In this document: one piece after another, positions 3,805-40,649 of the stretch
Numbering within the stretch: the stretch's first letter is position 1
Layout of the letters: each line of letters begins with the position of its first letter
Origin: a phage
DNA: 64,000 nucleotides
Sequence record: PZ445442.1
Reading direction: 5' to 3' (one strand)
Made by a program: the position numbers and the translations under genes
Notes under the pieces: generated by a model
The model's database searches: none
What the model was told of the DNA's origin: nothing
The model's input: only the letters and a program-made list of their open reading frames with translations

Positions 3805-5872
3805 GTTTATATCCTCTGCATATAGCCGCTATGGAGAACCTAACCCAGTTGCAACAAGATACAAAAGTGGGGGTAGTATGAAACGAGACTATCGTGATGA
3901 AAAAGAGGTTGAAACTGTAGAGACTGTTTTAGAAAATACTAAAATTGTCCCTGTCCCACAACAAAATATCGGTCTGATGGCTGCACAATATTTTGGTGTG
4001 CGATCAGCATTGTCCCAAGAAGACGGTGTGACAGTCACTGCAACATATTTCCCATATTACGACCGATACGGAAATCTGTCCGGTTTCAAAAAGCGTGACT
4101 GGTCTAAGCCGAAAGAGCAGAAAGGGCACTGGTCTGTAGTAGGCATCGTAAAGGCCAACTCCCAGATGTTTGGTCAAAAGCTGTGTGCATCTTCCAACAA
4201 CCGTAAGCAGATCAACGTTTGTGAGGGAGAAGGTGATGTTATTGCAGCATGGCAGGCTGCATATCAGATACAAGTAAAAGGGATTCTCACCAATGCTAAA
4301 GCCCCGGCAAAGGTGAAGCAGTGGGCTAAAGAGGTCCAGGACGGGATCGATGCAGTTATCAACGGCGGTGATCTGGCAGGAAAACCCTGCCTGCCTTTTG
4401 TTGGAATTAACTGTGGATGTGCAAACGCAGTAGATACTTTTGCAAACAATGAGAAGTTTATCCGTAGCTATGGAACAGTTGTGCTGGCAATGGATAACGA
4501 TGCAGCTAACGAGGTAGAGAAGCAAAAACACGTCATTAAAGGTGTTGAGGCCACGCACAATATCGCAGCATTTTTAATGGCTGATAACGTTTACCACGTA
4601 GAATACCCTGGTGAAGTAAACGACCCTGACGGTGTAAAAGATATCCGAGACATGCTGAAGGCTAAAAAGCTGGAAGATATTGTCAACATGTTCCGGCATC
4701 CTGTTAAATATGTGCCTGATGCTGTGTCGGATTTAGAAGACTTCTCTATCGAGTCTTTGCGGAAAAAGACTTCCAACGGGGTAGATATCAGTGCAGAGTT
4801 CCCAAAACTGCAAAAAATGCTAAAAGGCTTGCACAAAGGGACACTCGTAATGCTTACAGGTCCATCAGGCGGCGGTAAAACAACCGTGGCTAAAAAACTG
4901 GAACACTGTATTGCAAGATACCTAATGGATCCGACATGCCAGAAGGCTGATGACTATGAAGAGGATGATCGTCTATGTATGATCCATCTTGAGGAGGACC
5001 CAGAGGAAGCAATTAACTCCTTGTATGCAAACCAGTTAGGGTTTGATGTTAAAGAGTTTGTTGAAGATCCTAGCCAGTTTTTAACTGATCAAGAACACGC
5101 AGAGATTCACCAATCATGGGCAAAAGCTGGAAAAATCAAAGTGTTCAAACATTTCGGGTCTATTCCGGTGGACGAGTTGATTACCAAGCTTAAGCAAATG
5201 GTTTGCCTGTACCATTGTCGTTATATTGTGCTGGATCACCTATCCATGGTAATTTCAGGGCTTAATGTTAAGGATGAGCGAAAAGAACTGGACATAGCTA
5301 TGACTCAGCTGGCTGCGTTTTGTAAGCAGTTTAATGTGTTTATCTTGGTGATCGCTCACCTCAAACGTACAGAGATTGTGCCTCCTAAGGACAAGGATGG
5401 TAACCCGTTACCTTTCTGGTATCCTGTGCGAAAAGAGAATTTGCGAGGATCGGCTGGGCTTGAGCAGTTGAGTTGGGTAGTCATAGGTGTCGAGGCCGAA
5501 GAAATGGTGGATCGTTCTCGTGGGCGTGTCCGTCTGGTAGGTCTTAAAAACCGTCCAGCAAAAACTTTAGGTATTGCTGACACTTTAGTTATGGACCCAC
5601 ACACAGGTAAGTTCCATGATGCCAGTAATTGGTACTGGGACAAAGAAATGCAAATGTTTACAGACGGAGAAGGTGGGGAGGTTGTTTGGAGACCTCAGGC
5701 TATGTTTGAGGATCAGGAGCATGCAGTTGTAGAAACACCTATGGGCAAGGTTGTGGCTGATAAGGTTGTAACTCCTACTGTTAAGTCTGTTGACACGCAG
5801 GAAGACCTCCAGTACGATGATCCATCCTCTGACCCGGTCCCCGGTTTTGAGGATGATGAAACGCCTTTTTAA
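3794..5872 (+). CDS. DNA primase-helicase (Toprim + DnaB-like helicase, T7 gp4-like)
   Basis: Toprim motifs CEGEGDV and LAMDNDAANE; Walker A GPSGGGKTT; Walker B/H2 IVLDHLS. Start moved to ATG 3794 with GAGGAG SD 7 nt upstream (track start 3779 is TTG). Confidence 0.85.
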   Translation: MGNKFISSAYSRYGEPNPVATRYKSGGSMKRDYRDEKEVETVETVLENTKIVPVPQQNIGLMAAQYFGVRSALSQEDGVTVTATYFPYYDRYGNLSGFKKRDWSKPKEQKGHWSVVGIVKANSQMFGQKLCASSNNRKQINVCEGEGDVIAAWQAAYQIQVKGILTNAKAPAKVKQWAKEVQDGIDAVINGGDLAGKPCLPFVGINCGCANAVDTFANNEKFIRSYGTVVLAMDNDAANEVEKQKHVIKGVEATHNIAAFLMADNVYHVEYPGEVNDPDGVKDIRDMLKAKKLEDIVNMFRHPVKYVPDAVSDLEDFSIESLRKKTSNGVDISAEFPKLQKMLKGLHKGTLVMLTGPSGGGKTTVAKKLEHCIARYLMDPTCQKADDYEEDDRLCMIHLEEDPEEAINSLYANQLGFDVKEFVEDPSQFLTDQEHAEIHQSWAKAGKIKVFKHFGSIPVDELITKLKQMVCLYHCRYIVLDHLSMVISGLNVKDERKELDIAMTQLAAFCKQFNVFILVIAHLKRTEIVPPKDKDGNPLPFWYPVRKENLRGSAGLEQLSWVVIGVEAEEMVDRSRGRVRLVGLKNRPAKTLGIADTLVMDPHTGKFHDASNWYWDKEMQMFTDGEGGEVVWRPQAMFEDQEHAVVETPMGKVVADKVVTPTVKSVDTQEDLQYDDPSSDPVPGFEDDETPF

Positions 5873-5930
5873 TGTTTAACAAAGAGTGGGAGGGGTAGTA
5901 CAACCGCCTCCCCTTTAAGGAGAACTGTAT

Positions 5931-8354
5931 ATGAGTATGTGGTCGTTCGATTTTGAGTCATCCGGTTTGCTGGAAGACCCAGATCTTTATTATCACTGCG
6001 GTCTGTTTAAAGAGCTGAATAAGAACCGTTTTATGCTGTTCCTTCCTCTAAATGACCGCACACACTACTCCGAGGAGGATATAGAAAAGGCTAAGAACTT
6101 CATTCTGGCAAAGAAAACTCTTTATAAAGATTTTGAAGTTCGCATAGCAGATTTTTCGGAGTTGGAAGGTTGGCTTACAGGCAATTCTGACTGGTCACCA
6201 ACAGCTTTGAACTGCCATAACTGCTACAGTTATGACTTTATGCTGATGGAAAGATTATCCGGTATTCATTTTGATATGTTCCGTGATCCTAAATGCATGG
6301 GGACTATCAACGATCACCAGGTTAACCTGTTTGATACGTTGGCGATGAGCCGAATCTTGTGGCCTGATCGCCCTTTACCAAAAGGTTGTCCGGACTCTGT
6401 ATTCAACCCGGTTACTAAGAAAATGCAGCCTGTTGGTCCCCACGGCCTTATGGCATGGGGCTACGCCCTTGGTAACCAGAAAGTTCAAATTGATGACTGG
6501 CGCGATCTTCCGTTGTGGAAGTATGTGGATCGTGTATTCGAGGACGTTATCATCCAGGAGCTGCTCTGGAAAGAGCTGGTAGCGGAATCAAAAGGTGTAT
6601 TCTACGGCAAATCTGACATGCAGAACTTTATGTACGATCCTGCCAAAGAGAAGCCGAAAGGGTTCAAGAAGATCACCTGGAAGAACGCATTACGCCGAGG
6701 CATGCTGCAGCACTTCCTGATGGAGCTGCAGGCCCGTCAGGGTGTGTATTTTGACATAGATGGAGCTATTGCTTTACGTGACCGTTGCGATGCGTGGATG
6801 AAAGAAATCGCTGATCGTGTTGAACCACAACTACCTTTAAAAGAGTTGTCAATGTCTCAGCGGCCCAAGTTCCCTGAAAAGCCGTTTAACCAAGATGGGA
6901 CAATCTCCAATAATGGTTGGAAATGGTTAAAAGATAAGCTTGGCTATCCTGTAGATATGAGCGCTTTAGAGTTCAAAGCCCCGCCTAAGCGAGCATTTAC
7001 CTCCACAGGGGATGTCAGCAAGATGGGGATAAAATGGTGTGAAGAGATGGGCTGCAAAGACCCTGATAAGATGGCTGATTTCTTGAGAGGCTATATTAAG
7101 GGCACTTCCACACCACAACCTTTACCTAAAGAGCTGATGGATCAGGCAATAAGTGATCTGCAGCAGAAGCGAATGCCTGACTGCAAGATACCTATGAAAA
7201 TCAGCAATCAGGACGACATTAAGCGGTATCTGATCAGTGCTGGCTGGCTCCCGACGATGTGGAGAACTAAGGATGTAACTAAAGACAGCAAGAAGAAAGC
7301 CCTACCTGATGCAGATGTTGATGCACGAGTATATGCATATATGGACGAGCTTTTAGAGTCAGAGTATTGTGATCTGATTATCAACTTCTGGAACAAAACT
7401 GATGCTAAGTTCCAGACAACCGTGCACAAGTTCCGAAGCTTTCCTAACTCCGAAAGGATTAAAAAGGAAGTATTCGGGAAAATACGTAGAAAAGCTAGGG
7501 CACTTATTACTTCTCCGCAACTGAAAGATACGTTTGGACACCTATGCCCGAATCTTGAAAAATTGAACGGAGAGATGGCTAAAGATATCGTCTTGTGGTT
7601 ATCTTTGCGAAACCGCAGATCGGTACTTGATCCAATCAAGGAGGATAAGGTTGATACTGGTCTTCTTAATCACCCACGTTTGAAGATTGACCATAAGCTT
7701 CCTGCTAAAAGCTCTGGATTAACAAACACTTCCAGACAGAAACACAGTATTTGTGCAAACATGCCTAAACCATCTCCTAAAGTGGTCATGGGTAAAGAGA
7801 TGCGTAGTCTGTGGGGTGTTCCTCCAGGATACTTTGAGATCGGTATTGACGGGTCCAACTTAGAGCAGCTTATCGGGGCTTGGGGTGCCTTTGAGTTCGA
7901 CAACGGATTGTATTATGATGTTGTAAGTAACGGGGACGCACACCAAAACAATGCTGAAGCATATACAAAAGTGGCAGGCAGAGAGGTGTCTCGTAACGAC
8001 GGTAAACCTATCACGTATGGGGTTATGTATGGGGCACAAAAAGATAAAGTTGCAGATATGCTGGACATCTCTCCAGAACTGGGGCAGAGAGTAATTGATG
8101 CTCTCTGGGATGCCAACCCAGGTCTTAAGGGGCGCAAAGAGGATCTGGAGAAATTCTGGGAAGCAACAGGTAAGAAATTTATCTACTCTTTTGACGGGCA
8201 TGCCATTTGGACCCGCTCTAAACACTCTTTGCTTAATGCATATCAGCAAAATGGCGGTGCATCGTTGTGCGACTTGGTCGGAATCCTCATGCACCACCAA
8301 ATGGTGAAGCGTGGATGGTATGATGAAGGTGTTCGTCGTATTATTTATTACCAT
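5931..8354 (+). CDS. DNA polymerase, family A, exon 1 (3'-5' exo + pol motifs A and B)
   Basis: Exo I FDFESSG at N-terminus; motif A-like GIDGSNLEQL; motif B KPITYGVMYGAQ; ORF halts at ...RRIIYYH just before motif C. Exon ends on T8354 (group I 5' splice-site U). Confidence 0.85.
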
Positions 8355-29953: not shown

Positions 29954-29971
29954 TTTTTTAACTGAATTATC

Positions 29972-29997
29972 AAGGGGCTTAGGCCCCTTTCTTTTTG
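29972..29997 (+). terminator. rho-independent terminator ending the rightward block
   Basis: AAGGGGC-TTAG-GCCCCTT stem followed by TCTTTTTG. Confidence 0.55.
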
Positions 29998-30599
29998 TCT
30001 GCTCTTCCCCCTACCATAAACGGCCCTACCTGGCAAGTGGAATAATTGACGAGCCATCAATCCCACACACTGTACAAACATACATATAAAATAACTATTG
30101 CATAATTTTTCATTGTGTGGTAGCAGGGCCATTTTTACACATTTTTCCTTCCAAAATTGCACGTAATGCAGCATTTGCACAAAATTTAACCTGATGCATA
30201 TATTCAATAGCTTGTCAACAACTAAAAATCTTTATAAGTCATACACTTACATAACTACAAAAGCGTTTTCTACGTGAAAAATCGAGTATAACTATAGCCG
30301 CCAGATCTCAGAATTTACGTACGCTCGCCATTCTATAGCCTGCTAAGCATTTATTCCAACCATAGAATAACGGAATAGTCAATACCTGCATAAAATAATT
30401 ATTCGTGTAAACTGCATAACATAAATCGGCCCAGGTGTCAACATTTTTCGTAAACAGTCTGGAATTGTCACGTTAGGTTACCATAAGCAGAGAAATCTTT
30501 AGTCGTCTAATGTTTACTGTACGTTACTATATTAACTGAAATCATTAGATGACTAATAGAAAGATAAGAAATAATTAACAATACAATTATTTTATCTGT

Positions 30600-30960
30600 A
30601 ACAATAAGGCAACTATGCAAACGAATGGCATGGCGCGACGGAGTCGCGACATAATATAAAAGCAGTAACCATCACCCCCGTGATAGTTTGTCTGCAAACT
30701 ATTAATCAGATCATAGTTGCCTTGTATTTAGTTAATCATGACATAACAAGCAAGGCAACTATAGATCTTCTAATAGTTGCCCTGCTTTTATATTATGTCA
30801 TAAATTATTAACATGCAAACGAATGGCATGGCTTATAATTTTTGAGAAAATAGTCTATACGTGAACAGTAAGGCATGCAATAGTAACAATTGTTATTGTA
30901 TCCAGTGTGTTGAGTATGCCCAGTATGTCACCATTGTGTCCAGTATGTCAGACAAGTTTT
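30600..30960. repeat. cluster of inverted and direct repeats in the convergent non-coding region
   Basis: 9-bp site GGCAACTAT at about 30608 and 30754, its complement ATAGTTGCC at about 30713 and 30773; 19-bp direct repeat TGCAAACGAATGGCATGGC at about 30616 and 30814; 18-bp inverted pair GACATAATATAAAAGCAG (about 30648) / CTGCTTTTATATTATGTC (about 30782); CCAGTATGTCA x2 at about 30920-30950. Confidence 0.5.
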
Positions 30961-32399
30961 CCTCCTCTTTGTCAAGTGCTGCATGAAAAATTTACAAACT
31001 GGTATGGTAGCATTTTTGCGGCCCTGTTTACATTCAGTAATGTATGTATAATCCTTGTTGTGTGGGCGTTTAGACGTCTAGACGGTTGGAAGTCTACAGG
31101 TCAATATCTAATCTATTGGCTGCTAACTATATCCCACACAAATAGTAAGAAATATGATTGTTATATGCGTAAACTGTAACTCATGTTATCAATCCCTGTA
31201 TGTATCACCAGTGGTGCGCATAATGGGTATTATGTTAAATTGCCCGTAATGATAACTATTCTCACAATGATAGGTATTCTCATTCACCCCAACAAAATAG
31301 GTTGCAAATGTTGTGCCACTGTGTGAACGGCCTCACCTATTAATTTGCCTCACTGCCTCGATATTTGAGAATTATTATAAAAATGAGAAGTATTCCCATT
31401 CCGTCCGCCTGGCAGCACTCCAGTCGCTACGGCTCCTGACAGGGCAGCACTCCTGTAGGTCAGGTCAAAATCGGGGTAGAACTGGACCTGTTCAGATATT
31501 TCTGGCTGACTCTTCAGGTCTGTGTGGGAAAAGCCAACCTCTCCGGCGGGGCAGGGGAGGTAAATTAAAAAATTTACGTGGTGTATGAAGAGCCCTTCAG
31601 GTAAGGCATGTATTATAGGATGAAACCCTCTTCAGGCATGATATTTGTGGGTGTGATATTTGCTGGAAAGCCAGATATGACGGGACTCCCGGCGGGGCAG
31701 GGGTAGTACAGACGGGGAAATATGGGGATGTAGTTGGGGAAATTGATCAGGCAGGTGGGGTATAGGATATGTTACAAGTATGTTAAATATGGAGGTTGAA
31801 TATCTGTAGGATTTGTGTGTAAAATCAAAGACTTAAGTGGTGTTGTGGTATTTTCTATAAATAATTCAAGTTTAATAGGTAATATTTGCCTCTATCCACT
31901 TTGTGTGGTAAACAGATTCAGATGAGATTAGTTTACAAGTGTATACATAATATACAAATTAAAGATACAGGAAACCCCCCTCCCCCTTCGGCTACCATTC
32001 ACCTTTTCCTCTGACTGGTACTTAAACACTTATTCAGACTCTTCAGGTTATCACCCATATATCATATGGCAGTGACTGGTGTCCTCCGGCCCCTCTTTCG
32101 TCACCCGTCCGCTTCGCCATGCTAATGCCATAGCCAAAGGTTCGGTTGTTCACCCTGTTCACTCAGGTGTATCTCCATACCCCTTCAAACCGAAGAGAAC
32201 AGAAAACCCGAATTACTCGGTAAAAGAAAAGAGAAGAACTTAATTTTATCAGGATAGGCAAGAATGTCAAGGCATGACTGCTCACTAAACAAGCAAACAG
32301 TCATGTGTGGGAGGTAAGTGATTGTGGTGGTGGGAAATTTAGTTGAAAGATGTGTTATAGGTGCGCTTCCAGCACTTTAGCCGGGCAGCTAATTGTGTG

Positions 32400-39482: not shown

Positions 39483-39766
39483 CGGTCTCCATCAGGTGGT
39501 TGTGGGACGTAAACACTGTTACGAATATCGTCCGCAGTATAGTAATAAGTGTCTCCAACCCTATCTCTGGCTGCAATGTACTCTGCTATACCAATAAGTG
39601 CCATTGATTTGGTGGCGTATCTTCCCAACTCGTTAGCTCCCCAGTAGAATTTAGACCAGTAGGGAATAAGACCGAACAAATATACCTTTTGACGAACTTC
39701 CCAGTAAGTGCCTTTTCCGACAAGTTTAAACTCGACTTCACTACTGTTAATCTTTTTCATTATCAA
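39479..39766 (-). CDS. hypothetical protein
   Basis: Track ORF. Confidence 0.5.
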   Translation of the reverse strand: MIMKKINSSEVEFKLVGKGTYWEVRQKVYLFGLIPYWSKFYWGANELGRYATKSMALIGIAEYIAARDRVGDTYYYTADDIRNSVYVPQPPDGDR

Positions 39767-40059
39767 TCTCCCTCTACCGTGGTCGGATTGTCAGTAAGAA
39801 ATTGAGCATTGGCTGGAGGCACGCCTGACATTTTCCACACAACCATAAGTTTGTAACCCGGCACCCTGTTAAGTGCAGATCGAGTAGAGTTTGTGCACGT
39901 ATACTTTCGCTTTCCAAACCCGTTCTCCATCATAATCCAGTACCCAGTATCTTTGTCACCAGGTATCGGTAGACCACCTTCATCAACCCACTGAATGGAC
40001 CACGGCACGATGGCTACAGCTTTATATTTAAACTTTTTAAACCACTCAAAAAGTTTCAT
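39763..40059 (-). CDS. hypothetical protein
   Basis: Track ORF; the tandem repeat lies immediately upstream. Confidence 0.5.
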   Translation of the reverse strand: MKLFEWFKKFKYKAVAIVPWSIQWVDEGGLPIPGDKDTGYWIMMENGFGKRKYTCTNSTRSALNRVPGYKLMVVWKMSGVPPANAQFLTDNPTTVEGD

Positions 40060-40063
40060 AATT

Positions 40064-40255
40064 CAGCCTCGCATAGACATAATCACTATAAACAGGCAAA
40101 CAATGAATCCGAATGCCACGCCACCCATAAACGTTAATATTGATGCAATCATAGTCAATCAGCCTCGCATAGACATAATCACTATAAACAGGCAAACAAT
40201 GAATCCGAATGCCACGCCACCCATAAACGTTAATATTGATGCAATCATAGTCAAT
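40064..40255. repeat. perfect tandem direct repeat, 2 x 96 bp (plus 9-bp start of a third unit)
   Basis: Unit CAGCCTCGCATAGACATAATCACTATAAACAGGCAAACAATGAATCCGAATGCCACGCCACCCATAAACGTTAATATTGATGCAATCATAGTCAAT appears twice back-to-back; intergenic on the minus strand. Confidence 0.8.
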
Positions 40256-40436
40256 CAGCCTCGCTTGGCAACTCTTCTACCTTAACATGCCGAAAAGTGT
40301 TACCGTAATGGTTGATCCATGACATCAGCTCGCTTTCTTGCTCTTCCTCTGGGATGAACTCTCGAATGCTGACAAGTTTTAAGAAAACCCAATCACAATC
40401 TGCACCCATTCTACCAGACAGGCAATAGTGCTTCAT
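40251..40436 (-). CDS. hypothetical protein
   Basis: Track ORF. Confidence 0.45.
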   Translation of the reverse strand: MKHYCLSGRMGADCDWVFLKLVSIREFIPEEEQESELMSWINHYGNTFRHVKVEELPSEAD

Positions 40437-40454
40437 AAAACCCTCCCGCCTGGT

Positions 40455-40649
40455 TTAGAATATTGCTTCTTCCATTGCGCCTGAGAGCAACAAAGAGGTG
40501 ATCTGGCTAACATTCATCTCAGACTCTACTTCCTCCCCTTTGAAAGGTTCGCGGCAGAATAGGACTGTTTCAGGACTTTTACTTCGAACAATATAATACA
40601 AATCATTCAATGTGTTGTAGTAATAAGTGTTAAAATGTAAGTTTTTCAT
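40455..40649 (-). CDS. hypothetical protein
   Basis: Track ORF. Confidence 0.45.
   Translation of the reverse strand: MKNLHFNTYYYNTLNDLYYIVRSKSPETVLFCREPFKGEEVESEMNVSQITSLLLSGAMEEAIF

Follow-up and report, generated by a model that had tools for sequence, protein, structure and literature searches.

The genome of Escherichia phage EmilHeitz, as represented in the window analysed here (a stretch of DNA of 64 kb), contains two back-to-back copies of a 96-bp unit, each of which codes for the same small peptide. Judged from the sequence, this array is probably a genuine and recent tandem duplication of a single mini-gene cassette, which was mediated by microhomology and is either fixed or polymorphic in the phage stock. 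All the marks of such an event that can be read at the sequence level are present, namely copies arranged head to tail, a single-copy ancestor flanked by a short direct repeat (designated R), and one R left at the junction. EmilHeitz is an rV5-like myovirus (Vequintavirus) which is held as Bas49 in the BASEL collection.

The 96-bp Array in the EmilHeitz Genome

Using Tandem Repeats Finder, an array was identified at positions 40063-40264 with a period of 96, 2.1 copies, 100% matches, no indels, and a score of 404. The segments 40063-40158 and 40159-40254 are direct copies in head-to-tail orientation and are 100% identical, and the array is the sole repeat of such size within the window. Ninety-six identical bases cannot arise by chance. 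An earlier, sequence-only reading had described a perfect 2 x 96-bp tandem duplication at 40064-40255, which is the same array in a frame shifted by one base, and the duplication was confirmed. The partial third unit which had been reported is also present, but it comprises 10 bp (TCAGCCTCGC, 40255-40264) and not 9 bp. The placement of the array directly upstream of the minus-strand ORF 39763-40059 was correct as well, with a distance of 3 nt to the start of this ORF. The features of the region are listed in Table 1.

In a megablast comparison of a 2,501-bp query with the deposited EmilHeitz genome, MZ501062.1, the identity was 100%, yet it extended over 2,405 bp. When one unit is removed, the window matches positions 64683-128586 of MZ501062.1 over 63,904 bp without a mismatch, and it is therefore only by the second unit that it differs from the deposited genome. 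Either of the two units may be the "extra" one. The identity of the units, together with the complete agreement with single-copy EmilHeitz elsewhere, supports the view of the sequence-only reading that the duplication is very recent.

Table 1: Features of the duplicated region and of the related prophage arrays. Positions refer to the window unless a record is named; SD, predicted Shine-Dalgarno sequence.
Feature	Position	Strand	Remarks
Repeat unit copy 1 (upstream in the direction of transcription)	40159..40254	-	100% identical to 40063-40158
Make-up of copy 1			6-nt leader TTGACT, 29-codon ORF and stop; the final 10 nt are R
Repeat unit copy 2 (downstream)	40063..40158	-	Identical to copy 1
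Small gene copy A	40159..40248	-	ATG 40248-40246, TGA 40161-40159; bas49_0162 / QXV78064.1
Small gene copy B	40063..40152	-	Identical to A; stop followed after 3 nt by the ATG of the 98-aa gene
Upstream neighbour, 61-aa gene bas49_0163	40251..40436	-	phrog_2381, no known function
Downstream neighbour, 98-aa gene bas49_0161	39763..40059	-	phrog_8932, no known function
R, upstream copy	40255..40264	-	Within the 3' end of the 61-aa gene; its GAGG is the SD of copy A, with 10-nt spacing to the ATG
R, middle copy	40159..40168	-	Last codons CGA GGC and TGA of copy A; SD for copy B
R, downstream copy	40063..40072	-	End and stop of copy B; SD for the 98-aa gene, 7-nt spacing
Weak sigma-70-like site TTGCCA-16-TATGAT, 10 of 12	40271-40244	-	-10 overlaps the ATG of copy A
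Prophage array, E. coli PAR (L025)	NZ_CP012379.1, about 5157-6108	minus strand of locus	
Prophage array, E. coli M1/5 (L026)	NZ_CP053296.1, about 5353-6092	minus strand of locus	

The Mini-Gene within Each Unit

The array had been taken to lie in an intergenic region. This was incorrect, since each unit is filled by a complete minus-strand ORF, which is annotated in GenBank as the CDS bas49_0162. The locus is part of a long run of small leftward genes which are packed end to end, and on the minus strand the unit has the organization GCGAGGCTGA-TTGACT-ATG...(29 codons)...CGA-GGC-TGA. The single copy present in the GenBank record comprises 90 nt, and copies A and B of the window both code for the 29-aa peptide MIASILTFMGGVAFGFIVCLFIVIMSMRG. 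In most other Vequintavirus records the bas49_0162 ORF has been left unannotated, and for this reason the stretch was read as an intergenic gap.

The peptide contains one hydrophobic helix and a lone arginine at the C-terminus. Its mean Kyte-Doolittle value is 2.04, with 2.59 for the best window of 19 residues. The 29-aa product is predicted to be a single-pass hydrophobic membrane peptide which would be long enough to span the membrane. In a tblastn search, the ORF was found to be intact, of full length, and present once per genome in 91/91 Vequintavirus records carrying it. For EmilHeitz and the diverged copies from E. coli prophages (described below), dN/dS ratios of 0.11-0.21 were obtained in frame and of 0.4-4.2 in the other two frames. 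In the comparison of EmilHeitz to the prophage of strain M1/5, 11 synonymous and 9 non-synonymous differences were counted over 21 and 66 sites, resulting in a dN/dS of 0.17 in frame and of 0.66 and 2.97 in the other frames. The in-frame values of the diverged copies thus identify the small ORF as a real gene under purifying selection.

The start codon was assigned with the help of a metagenomic Vequintavirus variant (L024; ENA ERZ28582848 scaffold_40, 1672-1785), in which the leader GATTGACTATG is replaced by GATTAACATG. Here, the R repeats are spaced by 95 nt and the 61-aa gene ends at TAA. Both the in-frame TTG and the -10-like TATGAT are gone from this variant, while the ATG has been retained, showing that the ATG is the start of the small ORF. 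A 31-aa product starting at the TTG was not found in any record.

A search of PHROGs with the peptide yielded only phrog_6302 with E = 0.004, which is not a significant match, and matches to Pfam were below threshold only. An exhaustive phmmer search against 1.84 billion representatives identified one cluster, consisting of the same peptide. Thus, in the PHROGs, Pfam, and phmmer searches no sequence relationship between the peptide and any named family was detected. Expression or proteomic data for the peptide were not found in the literature.

Of the two neighbours, the 61-aa gene has its stop codon in the TGA of GAT-TGA (40253-40251) and not in the TGA within R; in the alleles without a cassette, it becomes 62 aa long. 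With the 98-aa gene on the downstream side, a highly variable mosaic block begins.

The Direct Repeat R and Its Junctions

R is a 10-bp direct repeat with the sequence GCGAGGCTGA on the minus strand. It brackets an 86-bp body, designated U, which holds most of the 29-codon gene, so that the R copies are spaced by 96 bp. Within the window, the 10-mer is present only at 40063, 40159, and 40255. At the junction of the two units (...TCTAT-GCGAGGCTGA-TTGACTATG...) one R is left at 40159-40168, and the U-U junction sequence which is specific to the duplication is AGTCAATCAGCCTCGCATAGAC. By its position, R is part of the translational punctuation of the cassette itself, providing the Shine-Dalgarno sequence for the next ORF and, in the case of the downstream copy, the last codons and the stop. 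In the sampled single-copy genomes nearest to EmilHeitz, R flanks U on both sides at a distance of 96 bp, and the upstream R of FV3-type genomes deviates from this sequence at 1-2 bases.

Pairs of direct repeats of at least 10 bp which are 20-500 bp apart occur 65 times in the window, versus 30 +/- 5 expected from a first-order Markov model. The R pair is unremarkable in itself, and the argument therefore rests on the duplication having landed exactly on R. For a random duplication, the probability of being flanked by at least 10 bp of existing homology is about 1e-5. A coincidence expected only about once in 100,000 cases implies that the event was guided by microhomology.

Elsewhere in the window, short-range direct repeats cluster near 18.1-19.3, 26.6-27.2, and 30.6-31.6 kb. 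The repeats of the window include TAGTTTGACAACA and the 17-mer TGTATTTCGTAGGGCGG, the latter being repeated 492 bp apart. The excess of short-range repeats is probably due to promoter or terminator modules which recur in the rightward early region. A separate stretch of 2.4 kb at about 29,954-32,399, located between convergent gene blocks, is without an annotated CDS in EmilHeitz, and neither a tRNA nor an Rfam match was identified in it. Its segment 30,600-30,830 is dense in repeats and includes a perfect 18-nt inverted repeat (30648-30665 / 30782-30799); a perfect 20-nt direct repeat is present at 30615 / 30813. This CDS-free stretch may serve as an origin or encode non-coding RNA.

Copy Number and Haplotypes among Related Phages

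Variation of the copy number among isolates had been suggested as a check in the sequence-only reading, and such variation was found. Alleles with 0, 1, and 2 copies exist, and in an alignment the three states share identical breakpoints at GCGAGGCTGA. The 0-copy allele consists of R and is present in Murica, JEP1, S127 BCL3, and others. The 1-copy allele has the structure R-U-R and is present in 91 GenBank records, of which one is the deposited genome of EmilHeitz and the remaining 90 are further Vequintavirus records. The 2-copy allele, R-U-R-U-R, is present only in this window. Among 118 related GenBank records, one copy is thus present in 91, while 27 records (about a quarter) are devoid of the ORF. 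Of 60 records chosen as a spread sample, 13 are about 96 bp shorter. For further assemblies, which were found via exact flanking proteins, one copy was identified in 15/20 and none in 5/20; among those with an identical 98-aa gene, the 0-copy allele is present in 5/10.

A second genome with two copies was not identified by junction-centred blastn against 50,697 phage records, which included the 91 records carrying the ORF. Scans of IMG/VR, metagenome contigs, and GTDB genomes for the exact junction gave no 2-copy match, and the 2-copy state was also absent from the 20 assemblies found through exact flanking proteins. An antisense ORF of 96 aa, which can be encoded by a 2-copy genome alone, is not on record. 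In the papers found on Bas49/EmilHeitz, in which the phage is used for defence and receptor studies, neither a re-sequencing nor a duplication was reported. Among the defence systems, Avs8 and KpAvs2 are known to act against Bas49.

The cassette is located at a sharp mosaic boundary (window 39,600-40,600; loci L001-L013). The upstream genes bas49_0163 and 0164 and the cassette are mostly 90-100% conserved across the sampled Vequintavirus genomes, with the exception of JLBYU08. The downstream genes, 0161 and 0160, form three haplotype classes with a mutual identity of only 64-79%. Both 0- and 1-copy alleles were identified in each of these classes (A51.2 versus Murica; JLBYU08/A141 versus JEP1; ECP32 versus S127 BCL3). 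The presence of both states on all three haplotypes implies that loss or gain at R has occurred repeatedly, or that the states were moved by recombination exactly at this site. The R pair is therefore recombinationally active in nature.

Two observations on the records compared are added here. In a more distant Vequintavirus-like sequence (L014; IMGVR_UViG_3300010279_000001, 740-800), with 86% amino acid identity in the 61-aa gene, no cassette is present, and the junction differs (...GTGAGGACGAGTAATG..., without an exact R). This may be an empty site that never held the cassette. Furthermore, across the region, 18 records designated "Campylobacter phage" (MG0656xx; several of them UNVERIFIED) share 94-100% identity with Vequintaviruses of E. 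coli, and their host labels look doubtful.

Homologues in E. coli Prophages

The same mini-gene, again unannotated, was identified in an unrelated temperate prophage which, among 5,426 complete E. coli genomes, is present in 10. Its product is MIASILTFIGGVALGFIICLFLVIMSMRG in strain PAR and MIASILTFVGGMAAGFILCLFLVVMSMRD in strain M1/5. In the PAR prophage the boundaries match those of the EmilHeitz cassette: the start reads ...ACGAGGCTGATT-ATG and the end ATG-CGA-GGC-TGA. The cassette boundaries CGAGGCTGA are common to EmilHeitz and the prophage, and the distance from GAGG to the ATG is 10 nt in EmilHeitz and 6 nt in the prophage.

About 8 tiny hydrophobic ORFs (20-47 aa), which are not annotated, follow one another head to tail in these prophages (Table 1). 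On one side, this array is bordered by the gene of a 180-aa protein containing an HExxH motif (phrog_1365; without a Pfam match), and on the other by a gene at the position of the small terminase, which is annotated as DNA-binding or hypothetical. The first member of the array is the homologue of the duplicated peptide. In M1/5, two diverged tandem paralogues of the type MDAY... are present at a place where PAR has one.

Proposed Origin of the Duplication

For phage T4, it was shown experimentally that segmental amplifications and deletions are bounded by microhomologies of 6-10 bp which normally flank the locus, and that one copy of the microhomology remains between the amplified repeats (PMC9391042). 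In EmilHeitz, the two copies of R in a single-copy ancestor of the type R-U-R may have mispaired, either by replication slippage or by unequal recombination between sister or concatemeric genomes. With the R copies misaligned, R-U-R would give rise either to R-U-R-U-R, as present in this window, or to the natural 0-copy allele R. Since the breakpoints are located within R, the product is clean, with Shine-Dalgarno sequence, start, and stop being kept in both copies. The neighbours are intact, the 61-aa gene keeping its own stop and the 98-aa gene its Shine-Dalgarno sequence. Both copies would be part of one polycistronic leftward transcript, and the expected effect would be a roughly doubled synthesis of the peptide with no new regulation. 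The event would have occurred during recent propagation and may have been neutral or mildly beneficial. While the specific 2-copy allele is new, the mechanism is an ordinary one, known for large lytic phages.

Alternative Explanations

The sequence-only reading had interpreted the array as a duplicated promoter or regulatory region or as an array of binding sites. It is highly improbable that a duplicated promoter, operator, or binding-site array alters the transcription of the downstream 98-aa gene, since the unit is a coding mini-gene and contains no complete promoter. A sigma-70-like site with 10 of 12 matches overlaps the upstream edge of the array, and a promoter was predicted by PhagePromoter at the same spot in phage Gotham. 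If this site fires, the transcript would start inside copy A, and a complete copy B would be carried by it only in the duplicated genome. However, the site is probably not functional. Its -35 element lies outside the unit, and therefore only the -10 element is duplicated; at the corresponding -35 distance before the second -10, the sequence is TGTCTA, with 2 of 6 matches. In the L024 variant, the ATG has survived but the -10 is destroyed. The region contains 9 promoter-like sites versus 6.3 +/- 2.6 in shuffled sequences, which is no enrichment, and in a custom scan strong TGTTGACA-N17-TATxxT sites were identified elsewhere (38287, 38775, 46297, 47690, and others), but none in the unit. The promoter type of the subfamily has been described as TGTTGAC-N17-19-TATAAT (PMC7344957), and the site at 40271-40244 is without the subfamily-type TGTTGACA motif. 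All of the unit is coding, and it evolves in the manner of a protein; the relatives carry 0 or 1 unit, so that the array is conserved in none of them. In the unit, no terminator, no Rfam match, and no dyads or iterons beyond a 9-nt palindrome were found; a transcript map of rV5-like phages was not found in the literature. Extremely unlikely, too, is a miniature mobile element, that is, an 86-bp insertion with a 10-bp target-site duplication which was inserted twice. The presence/absence polymorphism and the exact 10-bp direct repeats do resemble a target-site duplication, and a homologous cassette is present in an unrelated prophage, from which it follows that the cassette has moved between phage lineages. 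This candidate was nevertheless rejected, since terminal inverted repeats are absent and each of the 91 phages and 10 E. coli genomes carries the cassette at a single locus. Since R consists of the Shine-Dalgarno sequence and stop of the cassette itself and also brackets the cassette in the prophage, it was not made by insertion. A second insertion exactly head to tail would also be far less likely than unequal recombination.

A discrepancy of assembly or record version, either by an assembler artefact in this sequence or by the collapse of two true copies in the GenBank record, is an unlikely explanation. In this case, the two sequences would not be separated by any biological event. It would account for the 96 bp being the sole difference from MZ501062.1 in 63.9 kb, and for the finding that two copies are present in no other public sequence searched; the record deposited for EmilHeitz has one copy. 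In a de Bruijn graph, a perfect tandem repeat appears as a loop, and the number of traversals can be misjudged either way. However, the breakpoints are located exactly on an existing 10-bp microhomology which is used in nature for the reciprocal deletion, as is predicted by biological slippage or recombination. A loop in the graph would also be resolved at the boundaries of the repeat, so that the argument from the breakpoints is not decisive. An array of 202 bp is within the reach of ordinary paired reads, and assemblers collapse repeats more often than they expand them. For a real duplication, it is quite unlikely that a higher dose of the peptide was selected on the propagation host in an adaptive amplification ("accordion"), for example in connection with host defence or superinfection exclusion, and equally doubtful that the duplication represents the first step towards an array that could expand further. 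In its anatomy, the array matches the T4 tifA amplifications which were selected by toxIN. In addition, a perfect 96-bp repeat should collapse by homologous recombination, and its presence as the consensus state would therefore suggest a bottleneck, such as a plaque, or selection. In the M1/5 prophage a neighbouring mini-gene of the array is present as two diverged tandem paralogues (one in PAR), so that duplicates of such cassettes can persist. On the other hand, only two copies and no ladder were found, and the 64 kb contain no compensating change. Natural phages can do without the gene, as about a quarter of the relatives have 0-copy alleles, and its product has no Pfam or PHROG assignment and forms one cluster among 1.84 billion representatives. 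A neutral variant can also be fixed by the purification of a single plaque.

Comparison to Known Systems

The closest resemblance in anatomy is to the amplification of dmd-tifA in T4 under toxIN selection (Srikant et al., eLife 2022, PMC9391042). As in T4, the copies in EmilHeitz are arranged head to tail, and the boundaries are located on a short direct repeat (6-10 bp in T4) which flanks the ancestral segment. One microhomology is left between the copies, the same kind of microhomology also yields deletions, and like T4, EmilHeitz is a large virulent coliphage. However, the unit in EmilHeitz comprises 96 bp with one mini-gene, whereas the T4 segment contains dmd and tifA with the tifA promoter. 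In EmilHeitz, two copies are present without a ladder, without compensatory deletions, and without a known selection. Furthermore, the promoter is located outside the EmilHeitz unit, and the microhomology is the Shine-Dalgarno sequence and stop of the cassette rather than a chance match.

A tandem change in gene copy number has reportedly also been observed for the K3L gene of poxviruses, in the "genomic accordion" attributed to Elde et al. (2012). In both cases, tandem copy-number change is a fast and reversible route to the dose of a viral gene. In contrast to K3L, the EmilHeitz array shows no evidence of selection, of expansion past two copies, or of later divergence or collapse, and the two cases differ in virus, replication system, and scale.

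The product of the mini-gene resembles those small peptides of about 20-50 aa which cross the membrane once and are known from phages and from E. coli, like the 29-aa KdpF and the 31-aa MgtS class. Shared features are the length of 29 aa, one hydrophobic helix, a basic residue at the C-terminus, an own Shine-Dalgarno sequence, and a tight packing in the operon; genes of the bas49_0162 type are likewise usually missed by annotation pipelines. However, the EmilHeitz peptide is without sequence relationship to the named families, and the likeness is one of general features only. A further likeness exists to regulatory tandem repeats, like iterons, operator arrays, and duplicated promoters, since direct repeats are present immediately upstream of a gene. 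Regulatory arrays are non-coding, short (about 15-25 bp), and conserved as arrays, whereas the EmilHeitz unit comprises 96 bp, is fully coding, and is present in 0-1 copies in the relatives.

Implications for Vequintaviruses and Other Large Phages

A more far-reaching view, which has to be regarded as rather improbable, would be that the cassette of Shine-Dalgarno sequence, mini-ORF, and stop is a self-contained and horizontally exchanged module, with the punctuation CGAGGCTGA serving as a recombination handle and the copy number (0/1/2) as an adaptive dosage switch. If this were true, phages would delete, acquire, and amplify tiny genes for membrane peptides in register, leaving the neighbours undisturbed. 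The window would then show the zero-divergence step of the process behind the mini-ORF arrays of the prophages, and the dosage switch would be tied to host range or defence.

The probable microhomology-mediated duplication of the mini-gene has more immediate consequences. The window differs from the BASEL reference Bas49 by a gene duplication, and users of the stock may want to check for it. Conserved genes for micro-proteins can be misread as regulatory DNA in repeat-based scans, and apparent gaps in the early regions of phages can hide conserved micro-proteins. With one pair of 10-bp repeats and three alleles, the locus provides a small and clean example of the change of gene content in large virulent phages.
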